Shown: positions 7,265 to 59,011, numbered from the stretch's first letter. The stretch is 64,000 nt of DNA from an uncultured Gammaproteobacteria bacterium (GCA_964535515.1 CAZHTA010000002.1:684-64683), one strand, 5' to 3'. Numbers and translations: made by a program. Notes: generated by a model from the sequence alone, not told the origin.

Positions 7265-7750
7265 TTAGTTTAGATCGGGGAGATCGAAAAGGCCGAGGAG
7301 CACACCGAATCCGTAAGCGACCCCATTGGTGACAATGGCGGCGCATAACCCCCACCAGATGGCCTCGAGGAAGTATCCGCACGAGAACCATGCGGAGTAG
7401 TCCTTCCCGTCTCCAGCCGCGAGCGCCCAGCGCCACCCATAGTTAGCGGCGAGGAGATGGAGCAACACCGCAACCACAGTGACCACCACCGCCAACGGCC
7501 GGCGGGCGTCGCTGTCCAAGTTGCTGCGGAGGACCAGTGCCCAAACAACCAGGGACACCACTGGCCCGATTGCGAAGGCCATGACCACGCCGAACCAATC
7601 GACTCCATCCAGCTTCGCGCTGCACCAGACGGAATCATCGTACCCGCCACCACCGGCCAACGCAAGGCCGGGGAGAAGGAACATTACCGTGAAGGCCACG
7701 GCGACCATCGACACCAGCAAGCAGGTTTTCCAGGACCTGTTCAAGTTCAC
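7265..7750 (-). CDS. small integral membrane protein (about 4 TM), GC-rich, holin-like by size and topology
   Basis: ORF track. Hydrophobic segments. ATGA start/stop overlap with the upstream CHAP gene (translational coupling). High-GC codon usage. Confidence 0.55.
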   Translation of the reverse strand: MNLNRSWKTCLLVSMVAVAFTVMFLLPGLALAGGGGYDDSVWCSAKLDGVDWFGVVMAFAIGPVVSLVVWALVLRSNLDSDARRPLAVVVTVVAVLLHLLAANYGWRWALAAGDGKDYSAWFSCGYFLEAIWWGLCAAIVTNGVAYGFGVLLGLFDLPDLN

Positions 7751-9159
7751 CTCCTAGACCAGCCCACGCAGGGCAAGTCTTCGATTGTTCCGCGAACCCA
7801 CCAGAACCCTCCGACGAATTCCTGGAGGGTGGCGCACTCGTACCAGCGTGAGGTATTTTGCTGAACGACACACACGGCATCGTCCTTCACCTCAACGACA
7901 ATCGCGACATGCCCAGGGGCACGATGGCTGTTAGCCGCCACACTCTCCCGACCGTCACGATCAAAGATCAGGATATCATTCACCGCCGGCTTCACCGGCG
8001 AACCGTTCAGGAGCACCGACAAGCCCTTAGCGTTTCCGCTATAGAAATAGCTGTCAGCGTGACCGGTGCGCTCCATGTTCCTATGACCCAGGACGGTGGC
8101 GTAGAACCGATTGACCAGCTCCACACACTGCCACCGTTGGCCATAGCCAGACCGCTCCGATTCACCTTCACCGCGGGGGTGCTGATGAATCTCCGCCCCA
8201 CGATAAAGGCCAACGACCGCTCCCTGCTCCGCTTTGATACCAGGCGGAACAAGGACCACCACACCATTCTTGTCTCCGATACGTGGGAACTGCTCCCCAC
8301 GACCAAAGATAAACGACATGACGGTATCGGTGTAATACCCGAACCGACCGTTGCCGGCCAATCCGAGCCACCCACTTGCCTCCCCGAAGGTCGGCCGATA
8401 GTGAGTGAACACCGACGCGGCACTCGACTTTTCCTCATTGTCCATCTGGATGCCCGAGAGCTCCCAGATGTAAACGAGATCGAAGCCAAGCAACGATATA
8501 TCGGACAATTTTTCCACCCGGAACGGATCCGTGCCGAAGCGCTTACCGTTCAAGTGAAAAAAGTGATAACCCCACCACTCGCCCTGATACTCGAAAGCCA
8601 GAACGAGGTGTGTGTTGATTCCAGCCTTTGCCGCAAGAACTTGCGGGTCCATGCGACTCTGCTGAAAGTGATAGCCGGCCACGTAAAGCCGACTCGAGGA
8701 CAACACCTTGGAGAGATCACTGTCGAACGGGACCAATTCCTTAATCTTGTCCTCAGTTGAGGTTGAGAAATCCTTGGTCCGATCAAAAACTTTGCGGAGG
8801 TCGTCCGCATTGTCCTGACCGAACCGCCAAGCCACCGTCACCTCGAGCTTTTGTCTGCCCAAAATGAAGTTAGCAGCCTGGATCACGGCCGAAGCGCAAC
8901 GCTCGTTGTCCCACATCGACTGCGGGATAAACGCCGGCACCGGGCCGTTACCCGGACGGTCCACAAGACTATCCAGGAGTGATCGCACTTCTACCGGTGC
9001 GCGCGGGCTAAGGGGGAACTTACTCCCCCATTCTTCTTCCACATGGTGACGAGCCACGCAGAAGATCGTTACGAGAACCATCACGACCGAAGTCGCAAAA
9101 ATCCCCGTCACAAAAATCGCGTTGCGCACTCGTCTGCGCTCGGTCCGGCTCAGTCTCAC
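7747..9159 (-). CDS. membrane-anchored protein with C-terminal CHAP-domain peptidoglycan amidase/peptidase, GC-rich (GTG start)
   Basis: N-terminal TM (IFVTGIFATSVVMVLVTIFCV). C-terminal QCVELVNRFY...GHVAIVVEV matches the CHAP catalytic Cys/His pattern. GAGGTGA SD before GTG. About 60% GC by eye. Confidence 0.6.
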   Translation of the reverse strand: MRLSRTERRRVRNAIFVTGIFATSVVMVLVTIFCVARHHVEEEWGSKFPLSPRAPVEVRSLLDSLVDRPGNGPVPAFIPQSMWDNERCASAVIQAANFILGRQKLEVTVAWRFGQDNADDLRKVFDRTKDFSTSTEDKIKELVPFDSDLSKVLSSSRLYVAGYHFQQSRMDPQVLAAKAGINTHLVLAFEYQGEWWGYHFFHLNGKRFGTDPFRVEKLSDISLLGFDLVYIWELSGIQMDNEEKSSAASVFTHYRPTFGEASGWLGLAGNGRFGYYTDTVMSFIFGRGEQFPRIGDKNGVVVLVPPGIKAEQGAVVGLYRGAEIHQHPRGEGESERSGYGQRWQCVELVNRFYATVLGHRNMERTGHADSYFYSGNAKGLSVLLNGSPVKPAVNDILIFDRDGRESVAANSHRAPGHVAIVVEVKDDAVCVVQQNTSRWYECATLQEFVGGFWWVRGTIEDLPCVGWSRR

Positions 9160-14047: not shown

Positions 14048-14120
14048 GCGCCTGTAGCTCAGGGGTTAGAGCACTGCCCTTATAAGGCAGGGGTCGATGG
14101 TTCGAAGCCATCCAGGCGCA
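14048..14120 (+). tRNA. tRNA-Ile with anticodon UAU (reads AUA)
   Basis: Cloverleaf folded by hand: acceptor GCGCCUG/CAGGCGC, D-arm GCUC..GAGC, anticodon stem CUGCC/GGCAG with loop cuUAUaa, T-arm GAUGG-UUCGAAG-CCAUC. No encoded CCA. Confidence 0.7.
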
Positions 14121-14128
14121 CTAAACAT

Positions 14129-19019: not shown

Positions 19020-20474
19020 TTATAGGCTATTTTGATCATCCCAACAGTCAGTGTTATCGTCGCCTGAACAATTTTGTATGGGATTCCACTTCGAATCGTT
19101 ATTTAAACCAGGAAAATTTGAGCGCATAATGGTAATATTACAAACAAAACCTTTCTGTAACTCCTCTAAACTAATAAGAGACTTAACAAACTCTGAATTA
19201 CTCGCTAAAATTTTTATATTAGGTTCATCAGATATCGCAGCACAAGAACATCTCTTACCATAGTCTGCTTCACAATCTGGTGCAACAGAATTTAATATTT
19301 TATAACCCAATGTCCCTAAATTAACCACACACTCACCGCCTGTATTTTTACCAATCGCGTGCCAATCATCACAACCAGACGAGGCTGGATTAGCTGGACA
19401 ACTACTCCCATAAAAACCACCACCTTCATCATTCGTTTCACCCCCAAGATAAAACCCTGCCAAATTATCTTTTCCACCACACACACCAGACAAGTTGTTC
19501 GGCTCAAACATATAATTACGTGCTTTATCCGGCAAATCCAAATCATCAACTCTTTCAAGATCTCCATCTTTGCACATTGCAATCAACATTAAATTATTAT
19601 CAAAAATATTATCATCCAAATCGGAACAAAAAAAACCAGGATCACCTTTTATTGTACCAGCCAACATCCCTACTACACATTTAGGAAATTCTTCTTTTAG
19701 ATCCTTGTTTTGATAACAGACATTCCCTGGATCACAAACATCTCCCTTACAAATAGCTCCACCACTTTTTTTAACATAATATTGTTTACCACAAATAAAA
19801 TCTTTTGGGTTGTAAGACAAACTAAAATCAGCTGCCTCAGATTTAGTTTTATCAACTTTTACCCCTGGTTCTCCAGCAAATGCAAAAACACTAGACGACG
19901 CTGCCTGTGAACAGAACTCCGGCGTCAACGAATTTGTTTTAATCATAAACGTCTGTGGCAGACGTAAATTTACCAAAGCTGGATTAATCGTATTTAAAAT
20001 TACATAGGAAAGGTATGCAATCAGTAAGCCTATTAACGCCCCACCAATTCTCTTCTTGGCGCTACTAATTGCTTCGCTATTACCACCCGATGTTACATAT
20101 TGCGCTCCGGCAATAATTATCATTACCGCCGCTAAGATGCCAGCAATGCTAAGAGCATAGTTATAGTTTACTAAAATAAACTGTCCAACATCTTTAAATT
20201 GAGTTTGTCCACCAAATTTAACTTCTGTTTCAATAACCCCAGCCGGCAAACATTTTCCCCAACCTTCTTTATCGCAAGGGGCTTCGTTCTTTAAAAAACC
20301 CTTTGGTGCATCCGCGCTAGAAGCACCAAAATCTTTTCTTACTTTTAGACACTCTGCCTCTTCCCAACATATTGGATTAAATTCGGGAATCAAACTAGAG
20401 TCTGCTGAACGTGCCGGCAATACTGGTAATAAAAACATCCCTACCAATAAAACTAAAAATATTTTTCTCTTCAT
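19020..20474 (-). CDS. secreted Cys-rich protein with signal peptide and central two-TM VirB2/TrbC-like module (TINPALV motif)
   Basis: Signal peptide. [61 protein letters not shown] is paralogous to modules in the ORFs at 51560 and 53131. C-terminal domain very Cys-rich. Confidence 0.6.
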
Positions 20475-20477
20475 ATA

Positions 20478-21248
20478 CTATTTATTTAATTTAGAAAAGA
20501 AAGATTCCCAAACCTCCCATGGTACTACGCCTTGAATTTTTTCACCGTTTACAAAAAAAGTAGGAGTACCATTGATACCTAATTTAAAACCATCGGCATA
20601 ATCACGATTTACTTCCGTTGCCATGGTATGATTATTAAAACACTCACTTAATTTTTTAAAATCTAATCCAGTTAAATCTGCCATCTCTTTCAAATCTTTC
20701 GCTGTAACACTCACCGGCAAACTATCCTGGTTCTCATATAACCAATCATGCACTGGCCAGAACAACCCCTGTTGATAAGCACACCCCGCTAATTCAGCAA
20801 TCTTACTCGTACCTGGGTACAGAGACTCTAATGGGAAATCACGAACAATCAATTTAACCTTTTGTCCGTATTTGCTCAAAACCTTCTTTAAAATCGGCAT
20901 AGCGGCCTTAGAATTAGGACACTTAAAATCAACAAACTCAACAATTACAATCTCCGCATTCGCATTACCCAAAAACGGGTCATCCGTAGTTTCTATCTCA
21001 GTTCTCTGCACAAAGTCTGGTCCAGAATTACTGCCCGAAGCGCTAAACTCACCATAAATCTTCTGGGTTAGCGCTTCCCCTCGACCAGCTCTAATCTCGC
21101 TCCAATAGTAGATCGTTAGCCCGCCAAAACCCAAAATACTTGCCACAATCAACGCTAAAAGGCCAACCAAGGCCACTTTCCAACCACTATGATACCAATG
21201 TTTAAGAGGAATTGATTGATTTTCCATAGATATTTTATAGTTAGACAA
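20478..21248 (-). CDS. DsbA-like thioredoxin-fold protein (active site CPNS, CxxS variant), membrane-anchored
   Basis: N-terminal TM, VEFVDFKCPNSKAAMP at the expected active-site position, DsbA-like C-terminal half (GINGTPTFFVNG). Confidence 0.6.
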   Translation of the reverse strand: MSNYKISMENQSIPLKHWYHSGWKVALVGLLALIVASILGFGGLTIYYWSEIRAGRGEALTQKIYGEFSASGSNSGPDFVQRTEIETTDDPFLGNANAEIVIVEFVDFKCPNSKAAMPILKKVLSKYGQKVKLIVRDFPLESLYPGTSKIAELAGCAYQQGLFWPVHDWLYENQDSLPVSVTAKDLKEMADLTGLDFKKLSECFNNHTMATEVNRDYADGFKLGINGTPTFFVNGEKIQGVVPWEVWESFFSKLNK

Positions 21249-28676: not shown

Positions 28677-28774
28677 ACAGAAAAACACAAAAAATCCCCA
28701 TAAAATATGGGGATTTTTGATATCCAACCTTGACAAGCACTAAATTTTATGATACTCTAAATTTGTTCATTATT

Positions 28775-29115
28775 GGTAATCGCCCCAACCTAGTTGGGAG
28801 AGGAAAGTCCGAACATCTTCCAATGCAAATTGGAAAAAAGGATAGTGGGTAACACCCACCCCCCGATCCGCAAGGTACCGGGGCGGGAAAGCGGCACAGA
28901 GACTATACTATCCCGGCTTACCCGGGAGAAAGGTGAAAAGCGCATGGGGGTTTTGGTTCTAGATCAAAGCTACTATGCCCCATCCACAGCAATGTGGAAT
29001 GGTGCCAAGCCCTATCTGATGCAAGAGCAGCCTTGTGACTGGAATACCTAGTCGCTTGGAAAAGTTCGCTCGCAATGATTCTGATGGTAACATCAGGACT
29101 AGATAAATGATTACC
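28775..29115 (+). ncRNA. rnpB: RNase P RNA (bacterial type)
   Basis: P4 signature GAGGAAAGUCCGAACA near the 5' end and CCCGGCUUACCCGGG further on. P1 formed by GGUAAUC (28775-28781) with GAUUACC (29109-29115). Promoter-like TTGACA at about 28731. The overlapping 85-aa ORF is spurious. Confidence 0.7.
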
Positions 29116-29230
29116 TCCTGTTAAAAAGACTTAGGCCAAAATATACTGAAAAATCCAATACGCGGAAAGTATCAGTGTAATATGGTTCGGTCTTACAACA
29201 GAAGACAAAATTCGGCTTATAATAATGAAC

Positions 29231-29263
29231 AACAAAAATCCCGATTTATTCGGGATTTTTGTT
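29231..29263. terminator. bidirectional intrinsic terminator (AAAAATCCCGA-ttta-TTCGGGATTTTTG)
   Basis: Near-copy of the rplS/uvrA terminator motif; overlaps the stop codon of the minus-strand ORF 29246-29557. Confidence 0.5.
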
Positions 29264-45338: not shown

Positions 45339-45430
45339 AAAAATATTGAATTTTAAGATAAAATTAGCTTTGACGGACAGCTAAAAACATTATATAATAC
45401 AATCGCCTTGTAGGCAAACTTTTTTCGTAT

Positions 45431-47927: not shown

Positions 47928-49595
47928 ATGCCGGACGAATCGGCACCGGTGCCAACACAACCAACACCCGTGCCAGCCGACAACAACCAAAAACCAGAAA
48001 CAATAAACTTACCAATCGAAGGTAATGTTGTTAGTGCTATAGGAACCGGCGGAGCAACGGCTAAATTAGAAAATGGCAAGGTAAATATTAAATTTGATCT
48101 TCCAAAAGAAGTTAAGCCAACTACCACACAACCAACAAACAAAACAACAGATGAGCCCGAGGCACCCGCCTCAGAAGAAATAGCCACTGGCGGTGATGAC
48201 GAAACAGAAACCCCGCCTAATGCTCCAACAACTAATACAGAACCTACCCCACCACCCCCTCCTTTGCCAGCTCCAGAAAAAACAGGACAACCAACGGATG
48301 AACAAAATACACCGGCTAAGCCATTAGCACCACTACCTTCATCACCTGCTCCAGAACCAGGTACCCCAACTACTGAAAAAGCACCTCAAGGAACACCTAA
48401 CCAAAACGATCAAACTCCACCACCAACCAGTGATGCTTCTTTGCCACCACCAGGCGGACAAACACCAAACAGCGAAGAAGGTGCTCCTCCTACTAACCCA
48501 AATGAACCAACGCAACCAGTTCCTGGACAAGGACAGCCACCAACACCAGGTGCACAACCACCAGGCACGCCAACCACTCCAAATCCAACCAAACCAGGAA
48601 ACCCGGTTACTGGGGGTTTAAAAAATGCTCAAGCCTTAGCCAGAGGCGCCAAGAAAGGTCTTGGCGGTGCAAAGAAGCTTGCTGGCGGCGCAAAAAATTT
48701 AGTAACCAAACCAAAAGAAACAATGAAAAAAGCTGGCCAAAAATTGGCTAATGCTGGAAAAGATGGTTTAAATAAAATGGGCGCAGCAGCAAAACAAGGA
48801 GTTAAAAACAAAGCTTCTGATCTTGCTAATAGTTTGCGTACAACAAAATCAAAAAAAAGAAGACTACTTAAAGATATAGACAAGATTTCAAAAGAAATCA
48901 CTGCGCTTCAGGGCGGTCTTGATAACCTAAAATCATCTCATGCTCTAATGCTGCTTAAATTCTTCTTCCCAGGACTGTATAGCAAGATAGCTGGAATAAC
49001 AGAAATAAAAGGAAACGTTTCACAAAAAGCAAAAGTAAAAGCTCTCGGCGCACAACTAACCGCTCTTAAAACAGCTAGAGGGGCACTACAATCAGCGCGA
49101 TCGGCCGCAGCGGTATTAGATGCTTTAGTACTTTTGGTAGAAATGATAACATCAACACTAGGAACTGTAATATTCCCAATTTTAATAATATTGTTATCAC
49201 CATTAATCGTCCTAGCGCTAACGATAGTATTTTTTGCAGTTGGTGGAACATTTTCCCGAGCTTTTAAACAACTAGTAAGCCAGATTAGCAAACTAATCGA
49301 ACCGCTAGAAAAAACATTGGATAAGGAAAAGAATATATTGGGGAAGATGGAAACGAAAAAAGGTAAACGAGCAGAATTAGAAAACCTAGATAAAGAAGAG
49401 GCTCAACAACAAAAACCACAACAACAACCACCTCCTGGACAACAACCCACTCCAGCACAACCACAACCAGATACTGTTCCTCCACAACCCTCTCCTAGTG
49501 CTCAACCCACACCACCGCAGCCCGCTTCTGAACAATCACCCGGACCACAAGCACAACCAACGCCGCCAGCAGAAAACAATCCTTCAACTACATAA
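47928..49595 (+). CDS. Pro/Thr/Gln-rich low-complexity membrane protein (555 aa)
   Basis: Pro-rich N- and C-terminal tails (PTPPPPPLPAPE..., QQPPPGQQPTPAQPQP) flanking a hydrophobic helix (IFPILIILLSPLIVLALTIVFFAV); start 2 nt after the clpC stop. Confidence 0.5.
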   Translation: MPDESAPVPTQPTPVPADNNQKPETINLPIEGNVVSAIGTGGATAKLENGKVNIKFDLPKEVKPTTTQPTNKTTDEPEAPASEEIATGGDDETETPPNAPTTNTEPTPPPPPLPAPEKTGQPTDEQNTPAKPLAPLPSSPAPEPGTPTTEKAPQGTPNQNDQTPPPTSDASLPPPGGQTPNSEEGAPPTNPNEPTQPVPGQGQPPTPGAQPPGTPTTPNPTKPGNPVTGGLKNAQALARGAKKGLGGAKKLAGGAKNLVTKPKETMKKAGQKLANAGKDGLNKMGAAAKQGVKNKASDLANSLRTTKSKKRRLLKDIDKISKEITALQGGLDNLKSSHALMLLKFFFPGLYSKIAGITEIKGNVSQKAKVKALGAQLTALKTARGALQSARSAAAVLDALVLLVEMITSTLGTVIFPILIILLSPLIVLALTIVFFAVGGTFSRAFKQLVSQISKLIEPLEKTLDKEKNILGKMETKKGKRAELENLDKEEAQQQKPQQQPPPGQQPTPAQPQPDTVPPQPSPSAQPTPPQPASEQSPGPQAQPTPPAENNPSTT

Positions 49596-49621: not shown

Positions 49622-50857
49622 ATGTCCCCAAACCTAAAACGTATTCTCTTAATCATCGGCTTGCTCGTTGTGACCGCGCTCATTGGCTTCGGCCTCTATA
49701 CCATGTTTAAGCGCAGCGCACCCGGAAGAGTAACACCTGGACAAATTGCTACAACTACACCAGGTAGATTACCAGCTGCTGGCGAAAGATTACCTGACGC
49801 CACCACCACCCCTGGCGTTTTAGTTCCTGGCGGACAAGTGTTACCAACTGCCGGATATATCCCCCAAACAACTCCGGGGTATTACAAACCAACACCAGTA
49901 ACCAAAGTAACTTCTGACTATGCCACCTTCCCTTCTTTAAGCAAAGGTGGAATATTACGCTATCACAATGCTGCTGATGGCAAATTCTATCGTGTTTCAT
50001 CAGACGGGACAATCAGAGAATTAACTGACCAAATATTTTACAACGTACAAAAAGTTACCTGGGCAAATACTAAAGACGAAGCTGTCCTAGAATACCCCGA
50101 TGGTGCAAAAACTATCTACAATTTTGAAACAAAAACACAAGTGTCAATTCCCAAACACTGGGAAGAGTTTTCCTTTTCTCCTGATAGCAACGAATTGGCA
50201 GCTAAAAGTGTTGGTCTCTCACCAGAGAATCGCTGGCTAATTACTTTTAATGATGATGGCACAGGCACAAAATTAATTGAACCAATGGGTAACAACGCTG
50301 ACAAAGTACAAGTAAGCTGGTCGCCAAGTCGCCAAGTTGTCGCCTTCTCTCAAACCGGTGAACCTTTAGGAGCAGATCGTAAAGAAATTTTGTTTGTTGG
50401 TTTAAATGGTGAAAACTTTAAATCCACAGTAGTAGAAGGAAATGATTTCCGCCCTCAATGGTCACCTACTGGCAACCGTCTTCTTTATAGTGTCTACAGT
50501 GCTAGAAGTAACTACCAACCAGAACTCTGGGTGGTTGACGCCTATGGCGAAGATATCGGATCGAATCGTCAGATGTTAAAAATTAACACCTGGGCAGACA
50601 AGTGTGCTTTCCAAAATAACACTACCATATATTGTGCAGTACCACGCGACCTACCAGAAGGATCAGGCATGCTGCCAGAGTTAGCCGCTGGAACATATGA
50701 TGATTTTTACAAGATCGACTTAAAAACTGGATTAAAAACTGGTATACCATTAGGTGGAGATTATGAGATTGCGAATGTTTCTTTTGACACTGCGGGTGAA
50801 AAAGTATTTTTTACTGCCAAAAGTCAAACTGGTATTTTTGAAGTAAAATTAAAGTAA
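49622..50857 (+). CDS. membrane-anchored TolB-like beta-propeller protein
   Basis: N-terminal TM, TTTPG repeats, PD40/WD40-like repeats (WSPSRQVVAFS, PQWSPTGNRLLYS). Confidence 0.5.
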   Translation: MSPNLKRILLIIGLLVVTALIGFGLYTMFKRSAPGRVTPGQIATTTPGRLPAAGERLPDATTTPGVLVPGGQVLPTAGYIPQTTPGYYKPTPVTKVTSDYATFPSLSKGGILRYHNAADGKFYRVSSDGTIRELTDQIFYNVQKVTWANTKDEAVLEYPDGAKTIYNFETKTQVSIPKHWEEFSFSPDSNELAAKSVGLSPENRWLITFNDDGTGTKLIEPMGNNADKVQVSWSPSRQVVAFSQTGEPLGADRKEILFVGLNGENFKSTVVEGNDFRPQWSPTGNRLLYSVYSARSNYQPELWVVDAYGEDIGSNRQMLKINTWADKCAFQNNTTIYCAVPRDLPEGSGMLPELAAGTYDDFYKIDLKTGLKTGIPLGGDYEIANVSFDTAGEKVFFTAKSQTGIFEVKLK

Positions 50858-50865
50858 AAAAATAT

Positions 50866-51519
50866 ATGGAACATTCAAAAAAATTCTATCTCATATTCGG
50901 ACTAGCGGTATTATTGTTCGCTAGTATTTTTGCTTGGCAAGTAAGAAAAACAATGAATATTGATGTTACTCAAAATACCGAACCACTAATTAGTGAACAG
51001 ATATATAACATATCAATAACCGATGAGGAGACCCCCCTAGGTAATCCTGGGGCAGCAATTACAATTACAGAATATTTAGATTTAAATTGTTCTGATTGTG
51101 TAAACAAATACAACGAAATCAACAAAATTGTTAATGACAACCCAACTAAGTTAAGATTGTTTTTAAAACTAGCTGATACTAGTGGGTTGTTTTCGCACGA
51201 CTCTACCTACGCCAACACTGCCGCCTATTGTGCTAACCAACAAAAACGTTACTGGCCATTTTTAGATTCTCTGATGAGTAAAGAAAAACGCTGGAGCGAG
51301 GATTCACTTAATGCCGCAGCGGGTGAAGCAAAGATAAACCTAACAGCTTGGAATCGTTGTCGCGAAAACGATAATACCGTAGCTGCTGTAAACCTGTCTT
51401 TACAACTAGCCAAAGATTTAGGTGTTACTATTTCACCAACAATATTTGTTAACAACAAACGAATTGATCCAAAAGCAGAAATCAGCTTGACGGAGATAAT
51501 CAACAAATTTATTGAGTAA
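50866..51519 (+). CDS. DsbA-like thiol:disulfide oxidoreductase (CSDC active site), membrane-anchored
   Basis: N-terminal TM, EYLDLNCSDC CxxC motif, DsbA-like C-terminal half (TISPTIFVNN). Confidence 0.65.
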   Translation: MEHSKKFYLIFGLAVLLFASIFAWQVRKTMNIDVTQNTEPLISEQIYNISITDEETPLGNPGAAITITEYLDLNCSDCVNKYNEINKIVNDNPTKLRLFLKLADTSGLFSHDSTYANTAAYCANQQKRYWPFLDSLMSKEKRWSEDSLNAAAGEAKINLTAWNRCRENDNTVAAVNLSLQLAKDLGVTISPTIFVNNKRIDPKAEISLTEIINKFIE

Positions 51520-51559: not shown

Positions 51560-53125
51560 ATGGTAAAAAAAATAAGACTAAAAATTCTCCTAATTGGATT
51601 AACTGCCGTCTTATTGTTTTTGCCACAAACCACTCTTTTCGCCGCTACTAAAAGTCACATTGGCGATCCTTGTATAAACGATATCACTAATGCTGATTGC
51701 GAAGTTGATGGTGCGGATTTAGATTGTGAAAAAAGTAATAAAAAAGACGCTACAAAATATTGCACTGCAAACAGTGACTCCGACTGCATTGCTGAATACG
51801 GTACCCCCGCCAAAGGAAGTTGGGTGCGCAGTAGTGGAACAGATTATACTTATAATCTTGCCTATTGTTATAACTCCGCCACTAAAGAAGTAAAAACCGC
51901 CGCTGGAATAAACACCGACGTCAGCCCAATAGGCAACTTAGTGGGCGCTGTATTTGATTCCCCCGCTACTCAGGCTGCATTATTAGAAGAAGTAAAATCT
52001 TTTAAACCAGGATTAGAAATTCGTTTGCCCGGTTTAACATTTAGTGACCTATCTAACACTATCGACGAGGAAGGATACCTTCATATCCCTTGGATTGGCG
52101 AGTTTATCAAAGCCCTATACAATTTTGGCTTAGTAATTGTTAGTATCGTGGCAGTGGTGATGATCATAATGCAAGGAGCAAAGATTGTTGTTTCGGGTGG
52201 AGAATCAAAGGTAGAGGGATACAAAAAGATTGGACAAATAGCAATTGGTTTGGTTATTGCTTGGGGATCGTATGCCATACTCTATACTATCAATCCAGCG
52301 TTGGTTGAATTTGAGAGCTTGAAAGTTCGCTATATCCAACCAGACAAATTAGAACAATATAATGAATATGTTAACCCATCCGATGCTAGCCCGATTATAA
52401 CTGGCGGAGCATCCACTTTTGGCGCTAATGGTATTCCTGATTTTAAACAATGCGACTCACGTTGGAAAGATTTACCTTACGATGGTGTATACAAAGGGAA
52501 AAAACTAGGATGTTTTAGACAAGTAAAAAACAAAAAAAACCAATATGAAGGCTCGATCTGTACCAGTGGTTGTGGCGTCACTTCTTTAGCTGATGTATTG
52601 GTATATTATGGCTACAGTAATATTACCCCAGTAGACACAGCCCGATATGCCGTAGAAATTGGCGCACGGTCTGGTTGTAATGGCTCAATCGGATCATTGC
52701 TTTGCAATAAAATCGCTACTAAGTGGCCTGACCTCAAATGCAACAACATCAATCCCCAAAAAGAAATAAGCAAAATAGTTTCGCTGCTGCGAGAAAAAAA
52801 ACCCGTAGTATTTTCCTGCCACGATTGTCACGGCTTCACCAAAACCGAACAAGACATCACCTTTGAGGCACACTACCTGGTATTAACCGGAGTAGACGAT
52901 AGTGGTAACTGGTTTTCAGTAAATGATCCAGGAAGGCAAAGTGGAATGGTAAGAATATCCGCTAAGGAATTCGCTGAAGGAAGAGTGGCAACTACTTTCG
53001 CAGTAGAAAAAAAAGACGGCAGCACTGCAAATACTACTAATGGTGAATGTGTTACAATAAGTGCAACATTTAGCGCCACCCAAGCTGACTGCTTAGCACA
53101 AGACGGCACTTGGCAACCACAATAA
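51560..53125 (+). CDS. secreted Cys-rich protein: signal peptide, Cys-rich N-domain, two-TM VirB2/TrbC-like module, C-terminal C39-like cysteine peptidase domain
   Basis: QCDSRWKD...GCGVTSLADVLVYYG...HYLVLTGVDD resembles the C39/papain-like peptidase Cys and His. Central module near-identical to the downstream paralogue. Confidence 0.6.
   Translation: MVKKIRLKILLIGLTAVLLFLPQTTLFAATKSHIGDPCINDITNADCEVDGADLDCEKSNKKDATKYCTANSDSDCIAEYGTPAKGSWVRSSGTDYTYNLAYCYNSATKEVKTAAGINTDVSPIGNLVGAVFDSPATQAALLEEVKSFKPGLEIRLPGLTFSDLSNTIDEEGYLHIPWIGEFIKALYNFGLVIVSIVAVVMIIMQGAKIVVSGGESKVEGYKKIGQIAIGLVIAWGSYAILYTINPALVEFESLKVRYIQPDKLEQYNEYVNPSDASPIITGGASTFGANGIPDFKQCDSRWKDLPYDGVYKGKKLGCFRQVKNKKNQYEGSICTSGCGVTSLADVLVYYGYSNITPVDTARYAVEIGARSGCNGSIGSLLCNKIATKWPDLKCNNINPQKEISKIVSLLREKKPVVFSCHDCHGFTKTEQDITFEAHYLVLTGVDDSGNWFSVNDPGRQSGMVRISAKEFAEGRVATTFAVEKKDGSTANTTNGECVTISATFSATQADCLAQDGTWQPQ
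51985..52327 (+). repeat. about 340-bp near-identical (about 90% by eye) direct repeat, copy 1 of 2, encoding the two-TM module
   Basis: Direct alignment with 53707-54047 shows long identical runs (for example ttacaattttggcttagtaattgttag, caaaggtagagggatacaaaaagattggacaaat). Confidence 0.8.
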
Positions 53126-53130
53126 TTATT

Positions 53131-54747
53131 ATGAAAAAAATATTAATAACGACCTTCATAATATTAACAACCATAATCCCACAGGCTACACTAGCCAGTG
53201 TTAGTTGTGGTGCAGTCTACTGCCAATCTGACCAGATTTGCAACAACGATCCAGCTAGCCCTGCTTGCTTATCTAAAACAAACCAGGATTGCACTCAGAG
53301 CAGCGACTGTGGATCAGGTGTTTGTACTATTCCAGCTGGTGAATCAAAAAACAAATGTTTTGTCCAATTATCAACCGGCCTACCCATCGGTTCTGTTTGC
53401 AATGTTAATTCTGAGTGTCTATCAAATGATTGCGAAGGTAGTCAGAAAAAAAATGGGGCAGGAAATGCAACTAGCTATTGCGATTGCAATGACGCTGGCG
53501 ACTGTCAACAAAAATGGGGGGCACCCGCTAGTGGAGAATGGGAATGTGTTGATGGCGCGTCAGTCACTTTTGATTTAGACTATTGTGTAAACGAAGCAAA
53601 CAAAAGGATAGAGCCCACCCTACCAGAATACAAAAATGATGCCAGCATGTTTGGTAAACTGTCTGATGCTCTTTTTGACACAAAGGCTTTACAAGCCAAC
53701 CTGCTCCAAGAAGTTAAATCATTTAAACCTGGATTAGAAATCCGCTTACCCGGTTTAACATTTAGTGATTTAGCCAAAACCGTTGATTCTGAAGGATATA
53801 TCCAAATTCCTTGGATTGGAGAATTCATCAGAGCATTATACAATTTTGGCTTAGTAATTGTTAGCATCGTGGCCGTGGTAATGATCATCATGCAGGGAGC
53901 GAAGATTGTTGTATCGGGCGGAGAATCAAAGGTAGAGGGATACAAAAAGATTGGACAAATTGCAGTTGGTTTGGTTATTGCTTGGGGATCATATGCTATA
54001 CTCTACACTATTAACCCAGCATTAGTTGAATTTAAAAGTTTAAAAATAAAATACATTGAAACTATCCCCTTGGATGTTTTTGATAAAGGAGAAGCCCCGA
54101 CCCCATCTCACCCTAAAGCACTAAATGCTACCAACTTTGATGCTTTGTTCCAATCATACGGCAACTGCATCTCCGTTGATTGGCATGTTATCAAAGCCAT
54201 GGCATATATAGAATCATCACTAGATTCTAGTGTAGTTAATAGTTTAGGATTCGCTGGGCTTTTCCAAACAAAAACAAACTTCTGCCAAAGCTCTTTAAAA
54301 AGATACGGCTTAGATAACAAATGTACAGAACTAACAAATCCCGAGCTCAGCACTGCTGTCGGAACAAGCATGATACGCGACTCTATCAACCAAATTAAAA
54401 AGAAATGCCCTAATATTGATGGTGACTCATTAGCATATTTTATCTACATCGGACACCAAAGCGGACAAGGAACACTTTCCAATGTTATTGCCCAAACTTG
54501 TACATACACCAACGCATATACTTATATCCATAGTTCTTGGGAAAAACAAAGTGGCGGTAAATATGCTGACTCTACCGGCAAAAAAAGAACAGCTGTACAT
54601 ATTGCTACCGAAGCAGATAAAGGTGCAAAAAAAATGATTGGCTTGGTACAAGGAATGGGTGTAACAAATGCTTTAACTACTGTCGATAAAAACAAATGTC
54701 CACTCGACACCGCTAGCCTTAGATTTATCCTTACTGTAACACCGTAA
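53131..54747 (+). CDS. secreted Cys-rich protein: signal peptide, Cys-rich N-domain, two-TM VirB2/TrbC-like module, C-terminal lytic transglycosylase (SLT) domain
   Basis: AMAYIESSLDSSVVNSLGFAGLFQ matches the SLT catalytic-Glu and GLxQ motifs. Start placed at MKKILITT. Confidence 0.6.
   Translation: MKKILITTFIILTTIIPQATLASVSCGAVYCQSDQICNNDPASPACLSKTNQDCTQSSDCGSGVCTIPAGESKNKCFVQLSTGLPIGSVCNVNSECLSNDCEGSQKKNGAGNATSYCDCNDAGDCQQKWGAPASGEWECVDGASVTFDLDYCVNEANKRIEPTLPEYKNDASMFGKLSDALFDTKALQANLLQEVKSFKPGLEIRLPGLTFSDLAKTVDSEGYIQIPWIGEFIRALYNFGLVIVSIVAVVMIIMQGAKIVVSGGESKVEGYKKIGQIAVGLVIAWGSYAILYTINPALVEFKSLKIKYIETIPLDVFDKGEAPTPSHPKALNATNFDALFQSYGNCISVDWHVIKAMAYIESSLDSSVVNSLGFAGLFQTKTNFCQSSLKRYGLDNKCTELTNPELSTAVGTSMIRDSINQIKKKCPNIDGDSLAYFIYIGHQSGQGTLSNVIAQTCTYTNAYTYIHSSWEKQSGGKYADSTGKKRTAVHIATEADKGAKKMIGLVQGMGVTNALTTVDKNKCPLDTASLRFILTVTP
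53707..54047 (+). repeat. copy 2 of 2 of the two-TM-module repeat
   Basis: As for copy 1; divergence is far lower than in the flanking N- and C-domains. Confidence 0.8.
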
Positions 54748-54767: not shown

Positions 54768-56108
54768 ATGAATAAAAATACCATCATCTTCTCTTGTTCT
54801 CATTGCGGCGCCCAATTCCAAAAATGGATTGGACGATGTTTGGAGTGTGGCCAGTGGGGAACAATTGAAAAAGCACAACTAACTGGCGATAAGTCTGATA
54901 AAAAAGAAGACGTTGAATACGCACCAGTTAAAACAGTAAGTTTAAAAAATGTTGAAGGGAAAAACACTTTAAGGATAAAAACCAACACCGAAGAATTGGA
55001 CCGAGTTTTAGGCGGCGGAATTGTCCCGGGCAGTTTAATTCTTCTAGGCGGCGAACCAGGCATTGGCAAATCTACTTTAGCTCTTCAAATCGCCACCCTC
55101 TTGTCCCCTACCTTGTACTTTTCCGGTGAAGAATCAATTGAACAAATAAAATTACGCGCTGACCGATTAAAAATTACCGGCGCTGGCTTGGAAGTTGGCA
55201 ACACCACATCAGTAGAAAATATTATCGCCACCATAAAAACAAAAAAGCCAAAACTTGCGATTATTGATTCAATCCAAACTGCTCGTTCCAATGAAGCTGA
55301 CGGCGAAAGCGGCAGCATTACCCAGGTTCGTGCCGCTACAGTTAAGTTTATGGAAACCGCCAAAGCAACTGGCACAACAATTGTCCTAATCGGACAAGTA
55401 ACTAAAGAAGGTGCGGTAGCTGGACCAAAAACACTAGAACACCTAGTCGATGTAGTGATGTATCTTGAAGGTGACAAATACCACCAATATCGAATCTTGC
55501 GAGCAGCTAAAAATCGCTTTGGTTCTACTGACGAAATCGGCGTATTCTCAATGACTGAAAAAGGGTTAGAAGAAGTTAAAAATCCTTCAGCAGCATTCCT
55601 AGCTGGCCGTGGTGAACCAGTACCAGGTACCGCCATCACTTGTCTTATGGAAGGCAGCCGACCAATTCTGGTAGAAATTCAAGCGCTAGTAACAAAAACA
55701 AATTTTGGCTTCCCCCAACGCCGTGCCTCAGGATTTGATTTAAACCGTTTGCAAGTTTTAATTGGTGTCTTATCCAAACGCGCTAAATTACCACTTGAAT
55801 CATATGATGTCTTTTTAAATGTTGTCGGCGGTGTAAATGCTGAGGAACCAGCCGCTGATCTCGCTGTCATCCTCGCTCTCGCCTCAGCTTTAAAAGAAAA
55901 AACATTACCCGCTGATTTAGCAGCATTCGGTGAAGTCGGACTAGGCGGCGAAGTACGACCAGTATCACAACAAAAAAGACGACTAGAAGAAATTAAAAAA
56001 ATGGGGTTAAAATTTGCCGTAACGCCAGTAACAAACGAAAAAATTAGTGACATGAAAATTGCACCAATAAAAAACGTCCAAGAAGTAGTAGAGAAAATAG
56101 TGAAGTAA
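54768..56108 (+). CDS. radA: DNA repair protein RadA (Sms)
   Basis: N-terminal C4 zinc finger (CSHCGAQFQKWIGRCLECGQWG), RecA-like P-loop GEPGIGKST, KNRFG motif, Lon-like C-terminal domain. Confidence 0.9.
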   Translation: MNKNTIIFSCSHCGAQFQKWIGRCLECGQWGTIEKAQLTGDKSDKKEDVEYAPVKTVSLKNVEGKNTLRIKTNTEELDRVLGGGIVPGSLILLGGEPGIGKSTLALQIATLLSPTLYFSGEESIEQIKLRADRLKITGAGLEVGNTTSVENIIATIKTKKPKLAIIDSIQTARSNEADGESGSITQVRAATVKFMETAKATGTTIVLIGQVTKEGAVAGPKTLEHLVDVVMYLEGDKYHQYRILRAAKNRFGSTDEIGVFSMTEKGLEEVKNPSAAFLAGRGEPVPGTAITCLMEGSRPILVEIQALVTKTNFGFPQRRASGFDLNRLQVLIGVLSKRAKLPLESYDVFLNVVGGVNAEEPAADLAVILALASALKEKTLPADLAAFGEVGLGGEVRPVSQQKRRLEEIKKMGLKFAVTPVTNEKISDMKIAPIKNVQEVVEKIVK

Positions 56109-56126: not shown

Positions 56127-56163
56127 AAAAAAATCCACCTGCCAAATTAGGCAGGTGGTTTAA
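56127..56163. terminator. bidirectional intrinsic terminator (CCACCTGCC-aaatta-GGCAGGTGG) shared by radA(+) and the island E genes(-)
   Basis: A-run upstream gives a T7 run on the minus strand; TTTAATT on the plus strand. Confidence 0.55.
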
Positions 56164-56282
56164 TTCCAGGGAGGCCGACGACGGACACATCCAGTTCGTC
56201 GCGTACATGTACGCATTGAACCTTCAGCATCCGTCGCCGGCTATGAGGAGGGAGAACCGTAGAACCTAAGGCCAAAGACGCC

Positions 56283-56540
56283 TCAGGCAGTCTCGTCGGT
56301 CGGAGCGACGACAGCCTGAGCAGCGGCCTGCTGCTCAATCTCGTACTCGTACACCGCTCTGTGTACGACGCTGACCGGAATCAGCGCCAAGGGCGGTGTC
56401 TCATCATGACCCCGCTTCACGAGCGCGCACACGAAGTGTTGCTCACGAAACGTTCCTCCTATTTTGGGAGGCGGGCCCGGGCGCGTCACATCGACAGCCC
56501 ACTTGTCACCTTTCTTGGTCGTGAAGAACTTATCGCCCAT
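56283..56540 (-). CDS. small hypothetical protein (85 aa), GC-rich island E, downstream member of an overlapping pair
   Basis: ORF track. ATG with GAGG 6 nt upstream. Overlaps the upstream gene by 11 nt. N-terminus KKGDKWAVDV is faintly DUF2188-like. Confidence 0.45.
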   Translation of the reverse strand: MGDKFFTTKKGDKWAVDVTRPGPPPKIGGTFREQHFVCALVKRGHDETPPLALIPVSVVHRAVYEYEIEQQAAAQAVVAPTDETA

Positions 56541-56763
56541 CTCGAGCCTCTTTCGCGGCAGGTGGCACCGGAACCACCAAGTTCATGGCGTTCATGCGTC
56601 CGAAACGCGCCCCGTTTTTGGGGTTGAACACCAAGACCTCGACCGCCTGCTGACCCTCGACGAAGTCGACGTGTGCTGCTGCGACGAGGAGCTTCTGCTC
56701 CCGGTCGCTGCGCTTATACACAACGACCTTCCCGTCGAGTCGCGGATCTCTATTCTTCGCCAC
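56530..56763 (-). CDS. small hypothetical protein (about 77 aa, GTG start), GC-rich island E, upstream member of an overlapping pair
   Basis: Start moved to GTG at 56763, which has a strong GAGGAGG SD 5 nt upstream (the track Met at 56883 lies in AT-rich sequence). Candidate TTGACT-17-TACGAT promoter on the minus strand at about 56850-56880. Confidence 0.4.
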   Translation of the reverse strand: MAKNRDPRLDGKVVVYKRSDREQKLLVAAAHVDFVEGQQAVEVLVFNPKNGARFGRMNAMNLVVPVPPAAKEARDGR

Positions 56764-56932
56764 TTCTTCCTCCTCGGAAATCCAACCCAGCCAAAATGGC
56801 GGGAAAAGCGAGGCGTCGTGCCTCTCAGTTCCACATGGGTTAAAAACAGAAATAATCGTATCAAAAAACCAGCAAAAAGTCAATGCTTTGCCGGTTTTAA
56901 TGGAAAAAATATATTTTAAAATTTTTGTCTCA

Positions 56933-59011
56933 TTATTCCCAATGTACCCTGTCCATCTTCTTGAAGCCTTTTAAAATCTGTGGGTAATTTTTGGGATTTT
57001 CCACTATCTTTAATGCCCAAACTCTTGCGTCTTTTATTATCTCCCGATCTCCTAAAGTCGCCAACTTTAAATCCATCTGTCCACTTTGCTCAATACCATA
57101 TACTACACCCGGACCACGTTTAGATAGATCGTATTCTGCTAATTTAAAACCATCTAAGTTCTTTTCAAAAAAATTCAATCTTTCTAATACACTACTACTA
57201 CCATTTTCAGAAAAAACTAAACAATATGATTGATGAATACTTCTCCCAACACGACCACGAAATTGATGCAGCTGTGCTAAACCAAATCGCTCCGCGCTTT
57301 CAATCATCATCACGCTAGCATTTGGAATATCTACCCCCACTTCCACCACCGCAGTTGAAACCAAAATATCAATCGTGCCATTTTTAAACTTACTCATTAC
57401 CTCTTCTTTTTCTTTACCTAACATCTTGCCGTGTAAATATCCAACCCTTAAATCTGGAAAGATTTGTTTTGATAATTTTTCATATTCTGTCAATACACTC
57501 TTCTTTTCGCTCCCTAAATTTGTATCCTCAATTAATGGACAAACCACAAATGCCTGACGGCCGCTTTTAACTTGCGCCCGGATAAAATCATACGCCTTAA
57601 CACGATTAGAAGATTCAACAACACGAGTGATAATCGATTTTCTACCGACTGGTAATTCATTAATTACTGACAAATCTAAATCACCATAGACAGTTAAAGC
57701 CAAAGAACGCGGAATTGGTGTCGCCGTCATACTTAAAAAATGTGGTTTTGTTTTAACCGCCGTTTTTTCCTTTAACGCTTTTCTTTGTTCTACTCCGAAA
57801 CGATGCTGCTCATCTACTACAACTAATCCTAAATTTCTAAAGCTAATATTCTCACTCAACAGAGCATGCGTGCCAACTACCAAAGTAACCCTGCCGTTAT
57901 TAATATTTTCAAACACTTGCTTTTTTTGTTTAGCAAAACTAATGTCCTCGTCGCCCACCTCACCACTAATCTTTGCCTGACTCCTGGTTAACAAACCAAT
58001 TTTAACAGGTGTGCCAGAAAACAGCTGATTTAAAGAATTAAAATGTTGGCTGGCCAGAATCTCGGTTGGAACCATAAAAACTGTCTGCAGACCATTTAAA
58101 GCGGTATTGTACCCTGCCAGAGCCGCGACCACGGTTTTGCCCGAACCAACATCACCTGACAACAAACGATTCATTGGATGACCTTTCCCTAAATCACCTA
58201 AAATCTCCCAAGCAGAAATTTTCTGTGATTTAGTTAAAGTGAACGGCAAGCGATCAACAAATTCTTTAATCTCCTTTTCTTGAAATTTGATCACTGGCGC
58301 TTTTTCCTTTTCTCGACGTGATCGTTCAATAGCAGAATGTATCTGCAAAGAAAGAAGTTCGTCAAATTTGAGACGACGCAAACACTCAGCCAAATCTTTT
58401 TCGTCAGTAGGAAAATGCAGCCCTTTAATCGCATTACCAATTGGTATCAAATCTTCACCTTCTAAAATATCGTTTGGCAACCACTCTGGGATCTTACTGA
58501 CTAAAGGCAACACCTGACTAATTAGGAAACGTAATTGCTTTTCCGTTAAACCTGCAGTCAATGGATACACTGGTACTAATCGAGCAGTGTGAGTTGTTTC
58601 TTTTTTCCCAATCTTTTCATACACTGGGCTAACAAATTGTGCTCCCAACATATCAAGTGATACTTTGCCAGACAAAGAAATACCATCGCCAATTTTTAAC
58701 ACGCGTGTTATGTATGGTTGGTTAAACCAAACCACTCGAACCGCACCGGTCTCATCTTCGATCAAAGCTTCAGTAATAATCTTCCGAGTTTTAAAACTAC
58801 GTCGGCTAGCAATCAAATTTACTCGGCCGCTAACAGTAACGGTTTCATCTGATTTCAAATCTTTAATCATTACCACCTTACGAAAATCGTCATAACGAAA
58901 AGGAAAGTAATACAAAAGATCCTGGGCAGTTTTAATACCCAGATTGTTCAATTTTTTTACCAGCACTTTACCTACACGATTGAGTTGTGAAACCGAAGTA
59001 GAAAGATCCAT
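56933..59011 (-). CDS. recG: ATP-dependent DNA helicase RecG
   Basis: Wedge domain plus helicase motifs (GDVGSGKT, DEQHRFG, C-terminal helicase domain). Confidence 0.9.
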   Translation of the reverse strand: MDLSTSVSQLNRVGKVLVKKLNNLGIKTAQDLLYYFPFRYDDFRKVVMIKDLKSDETVTVSGRVNLIASRRSFKTRKIITEALIEDETGAVRVVWFNQPYITRVLKIGDGISLSGKVSLDMLGAQFVSPVYEKIGKKETTHTARLVPVYPLTAGLTEKQLRFLISQVLPLVSKIPEWLPNDILEGEDLIPIGNAIKGLHFPTDEKDLAECLRRLKFDELLSLQIHSAIERSRREKEKAPVIKFQEKEIKEFVDRLPFTLTKSQKISAWEILGDLGKGHPMNRLLSGDVGSGKTVVAALAGYNTALNGLQTVFMVPTEILASQHFNSLNQLFSGTPVKIGLLTRSQAKISGEVGDEDISFAKQKKQVFENINNGRVTLVVGTHALLSENISFRNLGLVVVDEQHRFGVEQRKALKEKTAVKTKPHFLSMTATPIPRSLALTVYGDLDLSVINELPVGRKSIITRVVESSNRVKAYDFIRAQVKSGRQAFVVCPLIEDTNLGSEKKSVLTEYEKLSKQIFPDLRVGYLHGKMLGKEKEEVMSKFKNGTIDILVSTAVVEVGVDIPNASVMMIESAERFGLAQLHQFRGRVGRSIHQSYCLVFSENGSSSVLERLNFFEKNLDGFKLAEYDLSKRGPGVVYGIEQSGQMDLKLATLGDREIIKDARVWALKIVENPKNYPQILKGFKKMDRVHWE

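Follow-up and report, generated by a model that had tools for sequence, protein, structure and literature searches.

Pilin-hydrolase fusion proteins of a Magasanikbacteria-like genome: a possible VirB1-like arm of the Patescibacterial type IV secretion system

The Patescibacteria (candidate phyla radiation), tiny epibionts of host cells, account for a large part of bacterial diversity. [quoted passage not shown] Directly downstream of virB4, S. epibionticum carries the essential hydrolase homologues SEML1_0007 and SEML1_0006. The former has 1,113 amino acids (aa) and a DD-peptidase fold at its C terminus; the latter combines a lysozyme-like domain with a Cys protease. The supplementary table of the same survey calls the gene two positions after virB4 "VirB2" on the basis of the Pfam family PF18895 (PMC12102498). 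Here we describe three genes, A, B, and C, from 64,000 nucleotides (nt) of DNA deposited as an uncultured Gammaproteobacteria bacterium (GCA_964535515.1, CAZHTA010000002.1:684-64683; this whole stretch is called the window, and coordinates count from its first letter). Their products combine a pilin-type two-helix hairpin with Cys-rich domains and, in A and B, with different C-terminal enzymes. We propose, at a probability of roughly 0.55, that such pilin-hairpin-anchored, DsbA-folded wall hydrolases constitute the VirB1-like arm of the Patescibacterial T4SS.

The closest described proteins are the PF18895 pilins, such as those of the essential S. epibionticum array SEML1_0014-0019 (PMC10633639, PMC12102498). 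Like A, B, and C, they have a signal peptide, two helices, and a short basic loop, and they share with the fusions the (L/Y)xTINPxLV motif and, in relatives, a virB4/prgI neighborhood. They differ in size and in what lies beyond the helices: stand-alone PF18895 pilins have 104-181 aa versus 484-538 aa for A, B, and C, which add a Cys-rich N-domain of 70-200 aa and a C-terminal enzyme or Cys-rich domain of 230-310 aa.

A second comparison is with the VirB1-type hydrolases of monoderms (PrgK of pCF10, TraG of pIP501, CwlT of ICEBs1, and the TrsG/CD419 profiles), which resemble the fusions in their SLT, CHAP/NlpC-P60, and M23-type domains, their membrane tethering, and their position in T4SS clusters. 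Hydrolases of the PrgK/TraG/CwlT type have a single N-terminal transmembrane (TM) or signal anchor and often two catalytic domains per protein; the fusions, in contrast, are anchored by an internal pilin hairpin with predicted extracytoplasmic domains on both sides of it, have a single catalytic domain each, and are paired with a DsbA of their own. The presumed role of the monoderm enzymes is local opening of the wall (PMC12102498). SEML1_0007 and SEML1_0006 match the fusions in position relative to virB4 and in catalytic type (DD-peptidase, lysozyme-like, Cys protease), but their published annotation, which is what we compared rather than their sequences, gives no pilin domain. The TrbC/VirB2 pilins of diderms (PF04956; F TraA and the T-pilin) share with the fusions a predicted helix-loop-helix with both ends outside, but show no significant sequence or structure match to the window proteins.

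A pilin-type hairpin inside secreted proteins

Gene A (51560-53125, plus strand) encodes 521 aa: a signal peptide (aa 1-29), a Cys-rich N-domain (aa 30-124), a linker (aa 125-175), the pilin hairpin (aa 176-251; 52085-52312), whose last residues are YTINPALVEF, and a papain-like Peptidase_C39_2 domain (aa 328-457; 52541-52930, delimited by Pfam), followed by a Cys-containing tail. Gene B (53131-54747, plus strand) encodes 538 aa from the ATG at 53131, the open reading frame (ORF) itself opening at a TTG at 53110; its product consists of a signal peptide, an N-domain with 16 Cys, the hairpin (aa 226-301; 53806-54033), and an SLT domain (aa 341-456; 54151-54498, from Pfam and alignment) with the motifs AYIES, GLFQ, and YIGHQSG. 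Gene C (19020-20474, minus strand) encodes 484 aa, with a signal peptide, a short N-domain, a hairpin of the canonical type (aa 95-170; 19965-20192), and a tail of 312 aa that includes 18 Cys and matches no family.

All three proteins begin with a Sec-type signal peptide, recognizable by a basic n-region, a hydrophobic core, and small residues at the presumed cleavage site. Cys residues total 17, 22, and 22 in A, B, and C, with none inside the hydrophobic hairpin; six are invariant in the A/B-type N-domain. A profile of the three modules, run against all six-frame ORFs, found exactly three copies in the 64 kb. In a global protein alignment of A and B, the N-domains are 36-38% identical and the C-termini unrelated, while the shared block reaches 88% identity over 121 aa and the hairpin 97% (73 of 75 residues). 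The first-pass annotation of this DNA had described just such ORFs, each starting with a signal peptide and a Cys-rich N-domain that lead into a two-helix block nearly identical between A and B amid diverged flanks, as well as a third paralogue on the minus strand with the same module and a Cys-rich tail; our data agree on each count, the module of C scoring 26.7 bits against T4SS_pilin.

That score, against PF18895, lies just above the gathering threshold of 26.6 bits. C also weakly matches the NCBIfam model Mbov_0395, a "pilin-like conjugal transfer protein" of a Mycoplasma integrative and conjugative element (E = 4.4e-4), and a Pfam scan finds PF18895 in 43 of 87 close relatives (best E, 5.1e-17). 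We built a hairpin-only profile (A4) from 97 fused proteins, A, B, and C among them. It recovers stand-alone proteins of 104-181 aa with E values of 1e-19 to 1e-25; most of these carry PF18895, and some bear the NCBI name "pilin." The similarity to pilins on which the earlier reading had been staked is thus present at the profile level. An [IVLT]NP motif follows helix 2 in 117 of 119 stand-alone pilins, as it does in A, B, and C, so that "TINPALV," noticed at first pass, is the hallmark of the whole Patescibacterial pilin family; in the stand-alone pilins a median of 21 residues comes after it. AlphaFold2, given an 87-sequence alignment, places helices at residues 177-211 and 215-244 of A, with a predicted local distance difference test (pLDDT) score of about 90 for the hairpin plus N-domain. 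On this profile evidence, the two-helix module is a homologue of the T4SS pilins of Patescibacteria (PF18895), and A, B, and C are pilins extended at both ends.

The family to which these proteins belong is large. A single-sequence word-index search with the module returned only three fragments, and we used an exhaustive profile search instead. The number of cluster representatives it recovers is 26,118 at E ≤ 1e-3, falling to 8,223 at E ≤ 1e-10 and to 471 at E ≤ 1e-30; among the best 150, nearly all have 350-850 aa, with the module internal. We also surveyed 80 related loci, one genome per species, which contain 98 module-bearing ORFs, almost all of 300-960 aa. These loci come mostly from Candidatus Magasanikbacteria (which we take to fall in GTDB class ABY1), with others from Kerfeldbacteria, Uhrbacteria, Kuenenbacteria, Paceibacteria, and Saccharibacteria. 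On this sampling, we regard pilin-hydrolase fusions as a large family specific to Patescibacteria. Their genes are currently called "hypothetical," "DUF1634," or "pilin." We found no description of pilin-hydrolase fusions in the literature searched, the coverage of which was incomplete, and the architecture has apparently gone unremarked until now.

Many third-party metagenome-assembled genome records titled "uncultured Gammaproteobacteria bacterium" (L001, L003, L010, and L012 among others in our survey) have a gene content of the Patescibacteria type and a synteny identical to that of Magasanikbacteria, and these titles look like taxonomic mislabels. By the same token, the window, with 40% G+C, comes from a Magasanikbacteria-like Patescibacterium.

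Catalytic domains, virB4 neighborhoods, and competing explanations

The C-terminal region of A matches Peptidase_C39_2 (PF13529; E = 1.9e-12, 48.4 bits versus a gathering threshold of 24; aa 328-457), and that of B matches SLT (PF01464; E = 2.4e-9, 37.2 bits versus 21.3; aa 341-456). The C39_2 motifs vP.fkQ, GCGpTSl, gHy.VlTg, and vNDPg are kept in all 13 aligned sequences (A and twelve relatives); by analogy, the candidate catalytic set of A comprises the Gln, the Cys of SGCGVTS, the His of EAHYLVLTG, and the Asn/Asp of VNDPG. Aligned with Escherichia coli EmtA, B places AYIES over AIES, the EmtA motif that we take to hold the catalytic Glu, GLFQ over GLMQ, and a variant YIGHQSG over SYANGAG; these SLT motifs are conserved in 23 SLT-type relatives. 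The C39/papain-like and SLT C-termini proposed at first pass therefore both score above Pfam gathering, and the catalytic residues, whose loss had been named as a point on which the idea could fail, lie in motifs that are intact in A and B.

As for substrates, peptidoglycan is a well-founded prediction for B. For A, peptidoglycan is suggested by the company its enzyme keeps, since the slot occupied by C39_2 is held in paralogues by SLT, amidase, VanY, M23, or NlpC domains. The earlier label "peptidoglycan hydrolase domains" thus stands for B, but for A it derives from family context only. In 87 close relatives, Pfam finds the same front part (N-domain plus hairpin) joined to SLT (17), Amidase_2 (10), VanY (10, plus other M15 models), C39_2 (8), GDSL esterase/lipase (6), M23 (2), glucosaminidase (1), NlpC/P60 (1), and CHAP (1). 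The nearest relatives (P0005-P0010) differ little from A or B in their front parts and have quite different C-termini. The tail of C has no Pfam or NCBIfam match and no homologue with an informative annotation among its five detectable relatives, and a phmmer search of the PDB with the C-terminal region of A gave spurious small matches only.

The link between the fusions and the T4SS comes from gene order in other Patescibacteria. A quarter of the surveyed loci, 20 of 80, encode an ATPase of the VirB4 type, recognized by P-loop_TraG, AAA_10, and DUF87 on the representative L079:5727-7565, and 17 contain a PrgI/VirB3-like protein. The order in the 20 loci is stereotyped: c836, c411, PrgI, c220, VirB4, c201 or c347, and the fusion gene, where c-numbers denote clusters of conserved neighbors without a family assignment. 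The fusion gene is accordingly two genes downstream of virB4. Its 3' side takes one of two forms: c435 with dnaA a few genes farther along, or TolB-like, DsbA, and ClpB genes; c435 is homologous to the TolB-like protein of the window (E = 3.4e-10). The virB4-linked fusions carry NlpC/P60, 3D, CHAP, or VanY domains, and four of them have PF18895 above gathering. In the Saccharibacterial loci L078 and L079, the slot downstream of virB4 is occupied by module-bearing proteins of 540 and 964 aa. In five loci (L050, L054, L061, L063, and L070), the VirB4 core is directly continuous with the TolB-like/DsbA/fusion module; these loci bridge the Saccharibacterial arrangement and that of the window. In the window, A and B are flanked by radA and recG, and T4SS loci of class ABY1 commonly include recG and radA (PMC12102498).

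Because fusion genes lie downstream of virB4-prgI in other Patescibacteria, we suggest that the fusions are the equivalent of VirB1, the arm that opens the wall. A Sec signal peptide would export the N-domain, and the hairpin would insert so that its short, Lys-rich loop stays on the cytoplasmic side, leaving the N-domain and the catalytic domain facing outward in the topology of a VirB2 pilin. The adjacent DsbA/MdbA-like oxidoreductase would then form disulfides in both outward domains. The enzymes, a lytic transglycosylase in B and a papain-like peptidase in A, would cut peptidoglycan locally, while the pilin hairpin would tether them to, or recruit them to, the T4SS or pilus at the site where the stand-alone pilins assemble. 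The central idea of the first-pass annotation, pilin-like anchors bearing wall-cutting enzymes, holds at the level of PF18895 homology and intact catalytic motifs. We found domain order, pilin homology, catalytic motifs, synteny, and mosaicism in the sequences themselves; a functional T4SS link in this genome is inferred.

Several findings weigh against such a role. Profiles for VirB4, PrgI, and other T4SS-cluster proteins matched nothing in the 64-kb window, and a Pfam scan of its larger ORFs showed no such protein either; the TolB-like/DsbA/fusion module lies apart from any virB4 seen there, and its neighbors are the housekeeping genes clpB, radA, recG, and uvrA. The VirB4 and PrgI labels in the survey were transferred from one Pfam-scanned representative per BLAST cluster, with crude ORF calling. 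C39_2 does not count among the established families of peptidoglycan hydrolases. PF18895 scores for A (15.1 bits) and B (15.7 bits) are below the gathering threshold, because their loop is 1-2 residues shorter than the canonical loop, which C has. In Pfam, none of the three proteins matched PF04956 with an E value of 0.1 or less, and a sequence-profile search of the PDB with the hairpin found no solved VirB2/TraA pilin. Foldseek searches of the PDB were no more specific: with the full-length AlphaFold2 model of A, whose C-terminal half is poorly modeled because the alignment mixes unrelated C-termini, the best match did not fall below E = 0.35, and a model of the N-domain plus hairpin (pLDDT, 69) retrieved generic helical hairpins only. 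Between them, the two models gave generic helical hairpins at E > 1 and no solved conjugative pilin.

The module had originally been called "VirB2/TrbC-like." The pilin half of that description is sustained by PF18895 homology, seen with profile A4 and with C at gathering, but there is no direct match to PF04956 or to a solved pilin; the connection of the hairpin to classical VirB2 is only indirect and runs through PF18895 alone. Two other proteins touch on PF04956: the relative L072 scores 24.5 bits (E = 3e-5), below the gathering threshold of 27.9, and one stand-alone pilin, P0211, has both the PF18895 and the PF04956 label. We set aside as hydrophobic noise a match of the hairpin profile to cytochrome bd subunit II in the PDB (E = 0.23), and likewise dismissed Pfam and NCBIfam matches of the hairpin to cytochrome-bd, MscL, and DUF350.

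The main rival explanation is that the fusions are housekeeping autolysins of a monoderm with a tiny genome, in which a pilin-derived hairpin has been co-opted as a two-helix anchor and has no current T4SS role. Such a cell has to retain, at its membrane, the transglycosylase, amidase, carboxypeptidase, and endopeptidase needed for its own growth and division. The core-gene context in this genome favors it: here, as in the majority of loci of the Magasanikbacteria type, the genes stand among clpB, radA, recG, uvrA, and pgm in conserved vertical synteny, and the 64 kb yielded no T4SS gene. Moreover, the range of C-terminal domains listed above equals a complete autolysin set, and the window also has wall genes that lack the module, encoding FtsW (1368-2465) and a CHAP protein (7747-9159). 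On the other hand, 20 of the 80 loci have the fusion gene within a virB4-prgI operon, where the TolB-like partner is found as well; the constraint on the hairpin (nonsynonymous divergence, dN, of 0.012 between A and B), together with its pilin-specific motifs, exceeds what a passive anchor would need; and the virB4-adjacent hydrolases are essential in S. epibionticum, whose T4SS is essential. We consider a purely housekeeping role doubtful, if still the foremost of the alternatives to a VirB1-like arm.

In solved conjugative pili, both termini of the pilin lie on the outer surface, and one can also picture a more radical arrangement, an armed pilus or a set of host-directed effectors. Here, the fusions would be minor pilins that copolymerize with PF18895 pilins, or would be cleaved after INPxLV, and their hydrolases would reach the host cell wall for entry of the conduit, the C-termini being polymorphic weapons matched to the host wall. 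The enzyme extension does begin where stand-alone pilins have their end of median 21 residues, GDSL esterase/lipase variants suggest targets besides the bacterium's own wall, and the tomograms of a Saccharibacterium and its host do show an 8.6-nm conduit (PMC11880426). A constant N-terminal and hairpin part, a variable catalytic cassette, and recurrent recombination also resemble polymorphic effectors; the fusions share with polymorphic toxin and effector families a constant front, cassette C-termini, and recombination between paralogues. Unlike those families, however, they carry wall hydrolases and esterases rather than nucleases or deaminases, have no adjacent immunity genes, and occupy a conserved core-genome position. 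We rejected a polymorphic toxin with immunity, as no ORF fits between A, B, and radA (gaps of 5 and 20 nt). The lack of an adjacent immunity-like gene in these gaps also counts against an armed pilus, as do the steric clash expected from globular domains of 250 aa on every subunit of a VirB2-type filament and the failure of fold searches to place the hairpin with solved pilins. We think it unlikely that the fusions act in this way. The boldest version, in which the T4SS pilus is an enzyme-armed drill, with fusions incorporated in a VirB2-like filament or clipped at INPxLV and recombining, host-matched enzymes that cleave glycans, peptides, and esters opening the path of the ~8.6-nm conduit, we hold to be equally improbable; if true, it would also explain the apparent lack of VirB1 in most Patescibacterial T4SS loci.

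Thousands of "VirB2-like" matches are in fact pilin-hydrolase fusions, placed in many lineages two genes 3' of virB4 and provided with a dedicated disulfide oxidoreductase. If these are a VirB1-like arm, they would supply the missing wall-opening component of the Patescibacterial T4SS. Mutable handles, namely the hairpin, the INPxLV junction, and the catalytic residues (Glu and Cys), are available for asking how an ultrasmall monoderm may build a conduit through two walls.

Cassette shuffling and a homogenized tract

A repeat search aligns 300 nt of gene A (51987-52286, plus strand) with 53708-54007 (plus strand) in gene B at 86% identity. Over the slightly wider range 51985-52327 (offset, 1,721), identity is 84.3%, rising to 89% in a core of 219 nt (52082-52300); random offsets in the window give 26% identity, with a maximum of 36%. 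The first-pass annotation had rightly noted high identity here, but its "about 90% identical over about 340 bp" corresponds to 84.3% on the same range and is approached in the core only, and its coordinate for the second tract was off by one base.

Divergence is very uneven along the two genes. Between the hairpins of A and B (75 codons), dN is 0.012 and synonymous divergence (dS) 0.58, whereas in the linker and N-domains synonymous sites are saturated; dN and dS were calculated by the NG86 method on 75 codons only and are noisy. Comparison with L001, a fully syntenic relative of the window, sets these values in time. Its 547-aa gene (A1) is 49% identical to A in the N-domain and its 532-aa gene (B1) is 66% identical to B, versus 38% between A and B; since each N-domain is closer to its L001 partner than to the other, the A/B duplication predates the split. 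In the hairpin, however, A-B1 dS is 1.25 and B-B1 is saturated (77% nt identity), while flanking orthologs have dS values of 1.2-1.65. The A-type gene of L001 has yet another history, with a C-type hairpin 67% identical to that of C versus 47% to that of A.

These comparisons support conversion between paralogues A and B after the lineage split, probably over a tract of ~300 nt and at an intermediate age. Homogenization, part of the earlier claim of "recent gene conversion," is thus upheld (dS 0.58 versus ortholog values of 1.2 or more), but recency is not, with dS at ~0.6. Given a hairpin dN of 0.012 against a dS of 0.58, most of the protein identity between A and B reflects purifying selection, and the event is not recent.

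Could purifying selection account for everything? If there was no conversion, the duplication would be old and only the hairpin under very strong purifying selection. That 40 of the 54 differing core codons are synonymous fits this explanation, as does the dN/dS contrast just given; hairpins of other genomes (P0005-P0010), too, are at least 90% identical in protein. Selection at the protein level does not reduce dS, though, and the A-B value of 0.58 falls well short of 1.25 for A-B1, saturation for B-B1, and 1.2-1.65 for flanking orthologs, even though the N-domains put the duplication before the split from L001. The C-type hairpin on the A-type gene of L001 likewise speaks for exchange. So do two tandem pairs elsewhere: in L060 (5813-7797; Saccharibacteria), where two fusions with 3D and CHAP domains lie two genes 3' of virB4, a 300-nt tract is 98% identical and hairpin dS is 0; in L020 (9269-13228), a 300-nt tract is 90% identical with dS of 0.53. 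In both pairs the remainder of the genes has diverged. Selection without conversion is therefore an improbable account of the A/B tract. Other tandem pairs in related loci are fully diverged.

Taken across loci, we read the hairpin as periodically homogenized between neighboring fusion genes, and the family as evolving by the shuffling of three cassettes: N-domain, hairpin, and catalytic domain. It offers a clean case of cassette shuffling combined with hairpin-sized gene conversion in reduced genomes.

One surveyed locus departs from the usual gene structure. In L032 (9851-12325; Magasanikbacteria RIFOXYD1_FULL_40_23), the module gene appears to be broken up into two overlapping ORFs (151 and 264 aa), while the gene after it has an interrupted hairpin match. 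A frameshift, a pseudogene, or a fault in the assembly could account for this.

Neighboring genes and other features of the window

Each fusion locus adjoins a gene for a DsbA-like protein. The first (50866-51519, plus strand), 41 nt upstream of A, encodes a DsbA/MdbA-like thiol-disulfide oxidoreductase with an N-terminal TM helix and a CSDC motif that matches Thioredoxin_4 (E = 5.4e-18, 66 bits) and also DSBA in Pfam. The second (20478-21248, minus strand), immediately upstream of C, matches Thioredoxin_4 more strongly (E = 4.9e-24, 86 bits). Adjacency to a DsbA-like gene, already remarked at first pass, is confirmed by these Pfam assignments and is kept in ~56 of the 80 loci, mostly with the DsbA-like gene ≤31 nt upstream of the fusion gene on the same strand. 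The active site of the second protein reads CPNS instead of CxxC, so that the second (resolving) Cys is missing; instead of an oxidase, this protein may be a monothiol isomerase or a chaperone.

Upstream of the first DsbA-like gene are encoded a TolB-like beta-propeller that begins with a TM helix (49622-50857, plus strand; weak PD40/TolB matches) and a Pro/Thr/Gln-rich membrane protein of 555 aa (47928-49595, plus strand). The latter has a coiled-coil-like, Lys-rich center, C-terminal hydrophobic segments, and long Pro/Thr/Gln-rich ends of low complexity; Pfam and NCBIfam gave noise-level matches only. The start of its gene overlaps the stop of clpB and heads the string tolB-like, dsbA, A, B; as cluster c540, it is kept in nine related loci. 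TolB-like genes occur in 40-41 of the 80 loci, RadA, RecG, and ClpB each in 28-29, and UvrA in 19.

Two arrangements are conserved. One is led by clpB and continues through the genes for the Pro-rich membrane and TolB-like proteins, dsbA, A, and B to radA, recG being in convergent orientation; in the window the string from clpB to radA is codirectional with gaps of ≤41 nt, A and B being separated by 5 nt and B and radA by 20 nt. The other, on the minus strand of the window, is uvrA, C, dsbA, and the pairing of a C-type gene with its DsbA ortholog next to uvrA is found in 19 loci. By consensus match only, the best σ70-like promoter candidate, TTGACG-17-TATAAT, precedes the clpB string (45370-45398, plus strand), and a G+C-rich hairpin after radA (56135-56158) looks terminator-like on both strands.

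The gap between radA (54768-56108) and recG (56933-59011) holds a G+C-rich island of ~600 nt (56150-56850; 58-62% G+C versus 40% for the genome). Its ORFs have no family match, and there is no credible Rfam match. Alignment with L001 is limited to the outermost 130-150 nt at either end and does not reach the core, so the G+C-rich core is a lineage-specific insertion; candidates are a remnant of foreign DNA, a small mobile element, or a structured RNA.

Elsewhere in the window, gyrB (3559-7053, plus strand) contains an intein, Intein_splicing matching aa 512-921 between DNA_gyraseB and Toprim. Besides FtsW/RodA, encoded at 1368-2465, we noted a candidate wall hydrolase of secreted type without the pilin module, encoded at 7747-9159 on the minus strand (470 aa; C-terminal CHAP, E = 3.9e-10). 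RNA genes include a tRNA-Ile with anticodon TAT (14048-14121, plus strand) and a class A RNase P RNA (28764-29235, plus strand), which at 472 nt, versus 367 positions in the model, must contain insertions.

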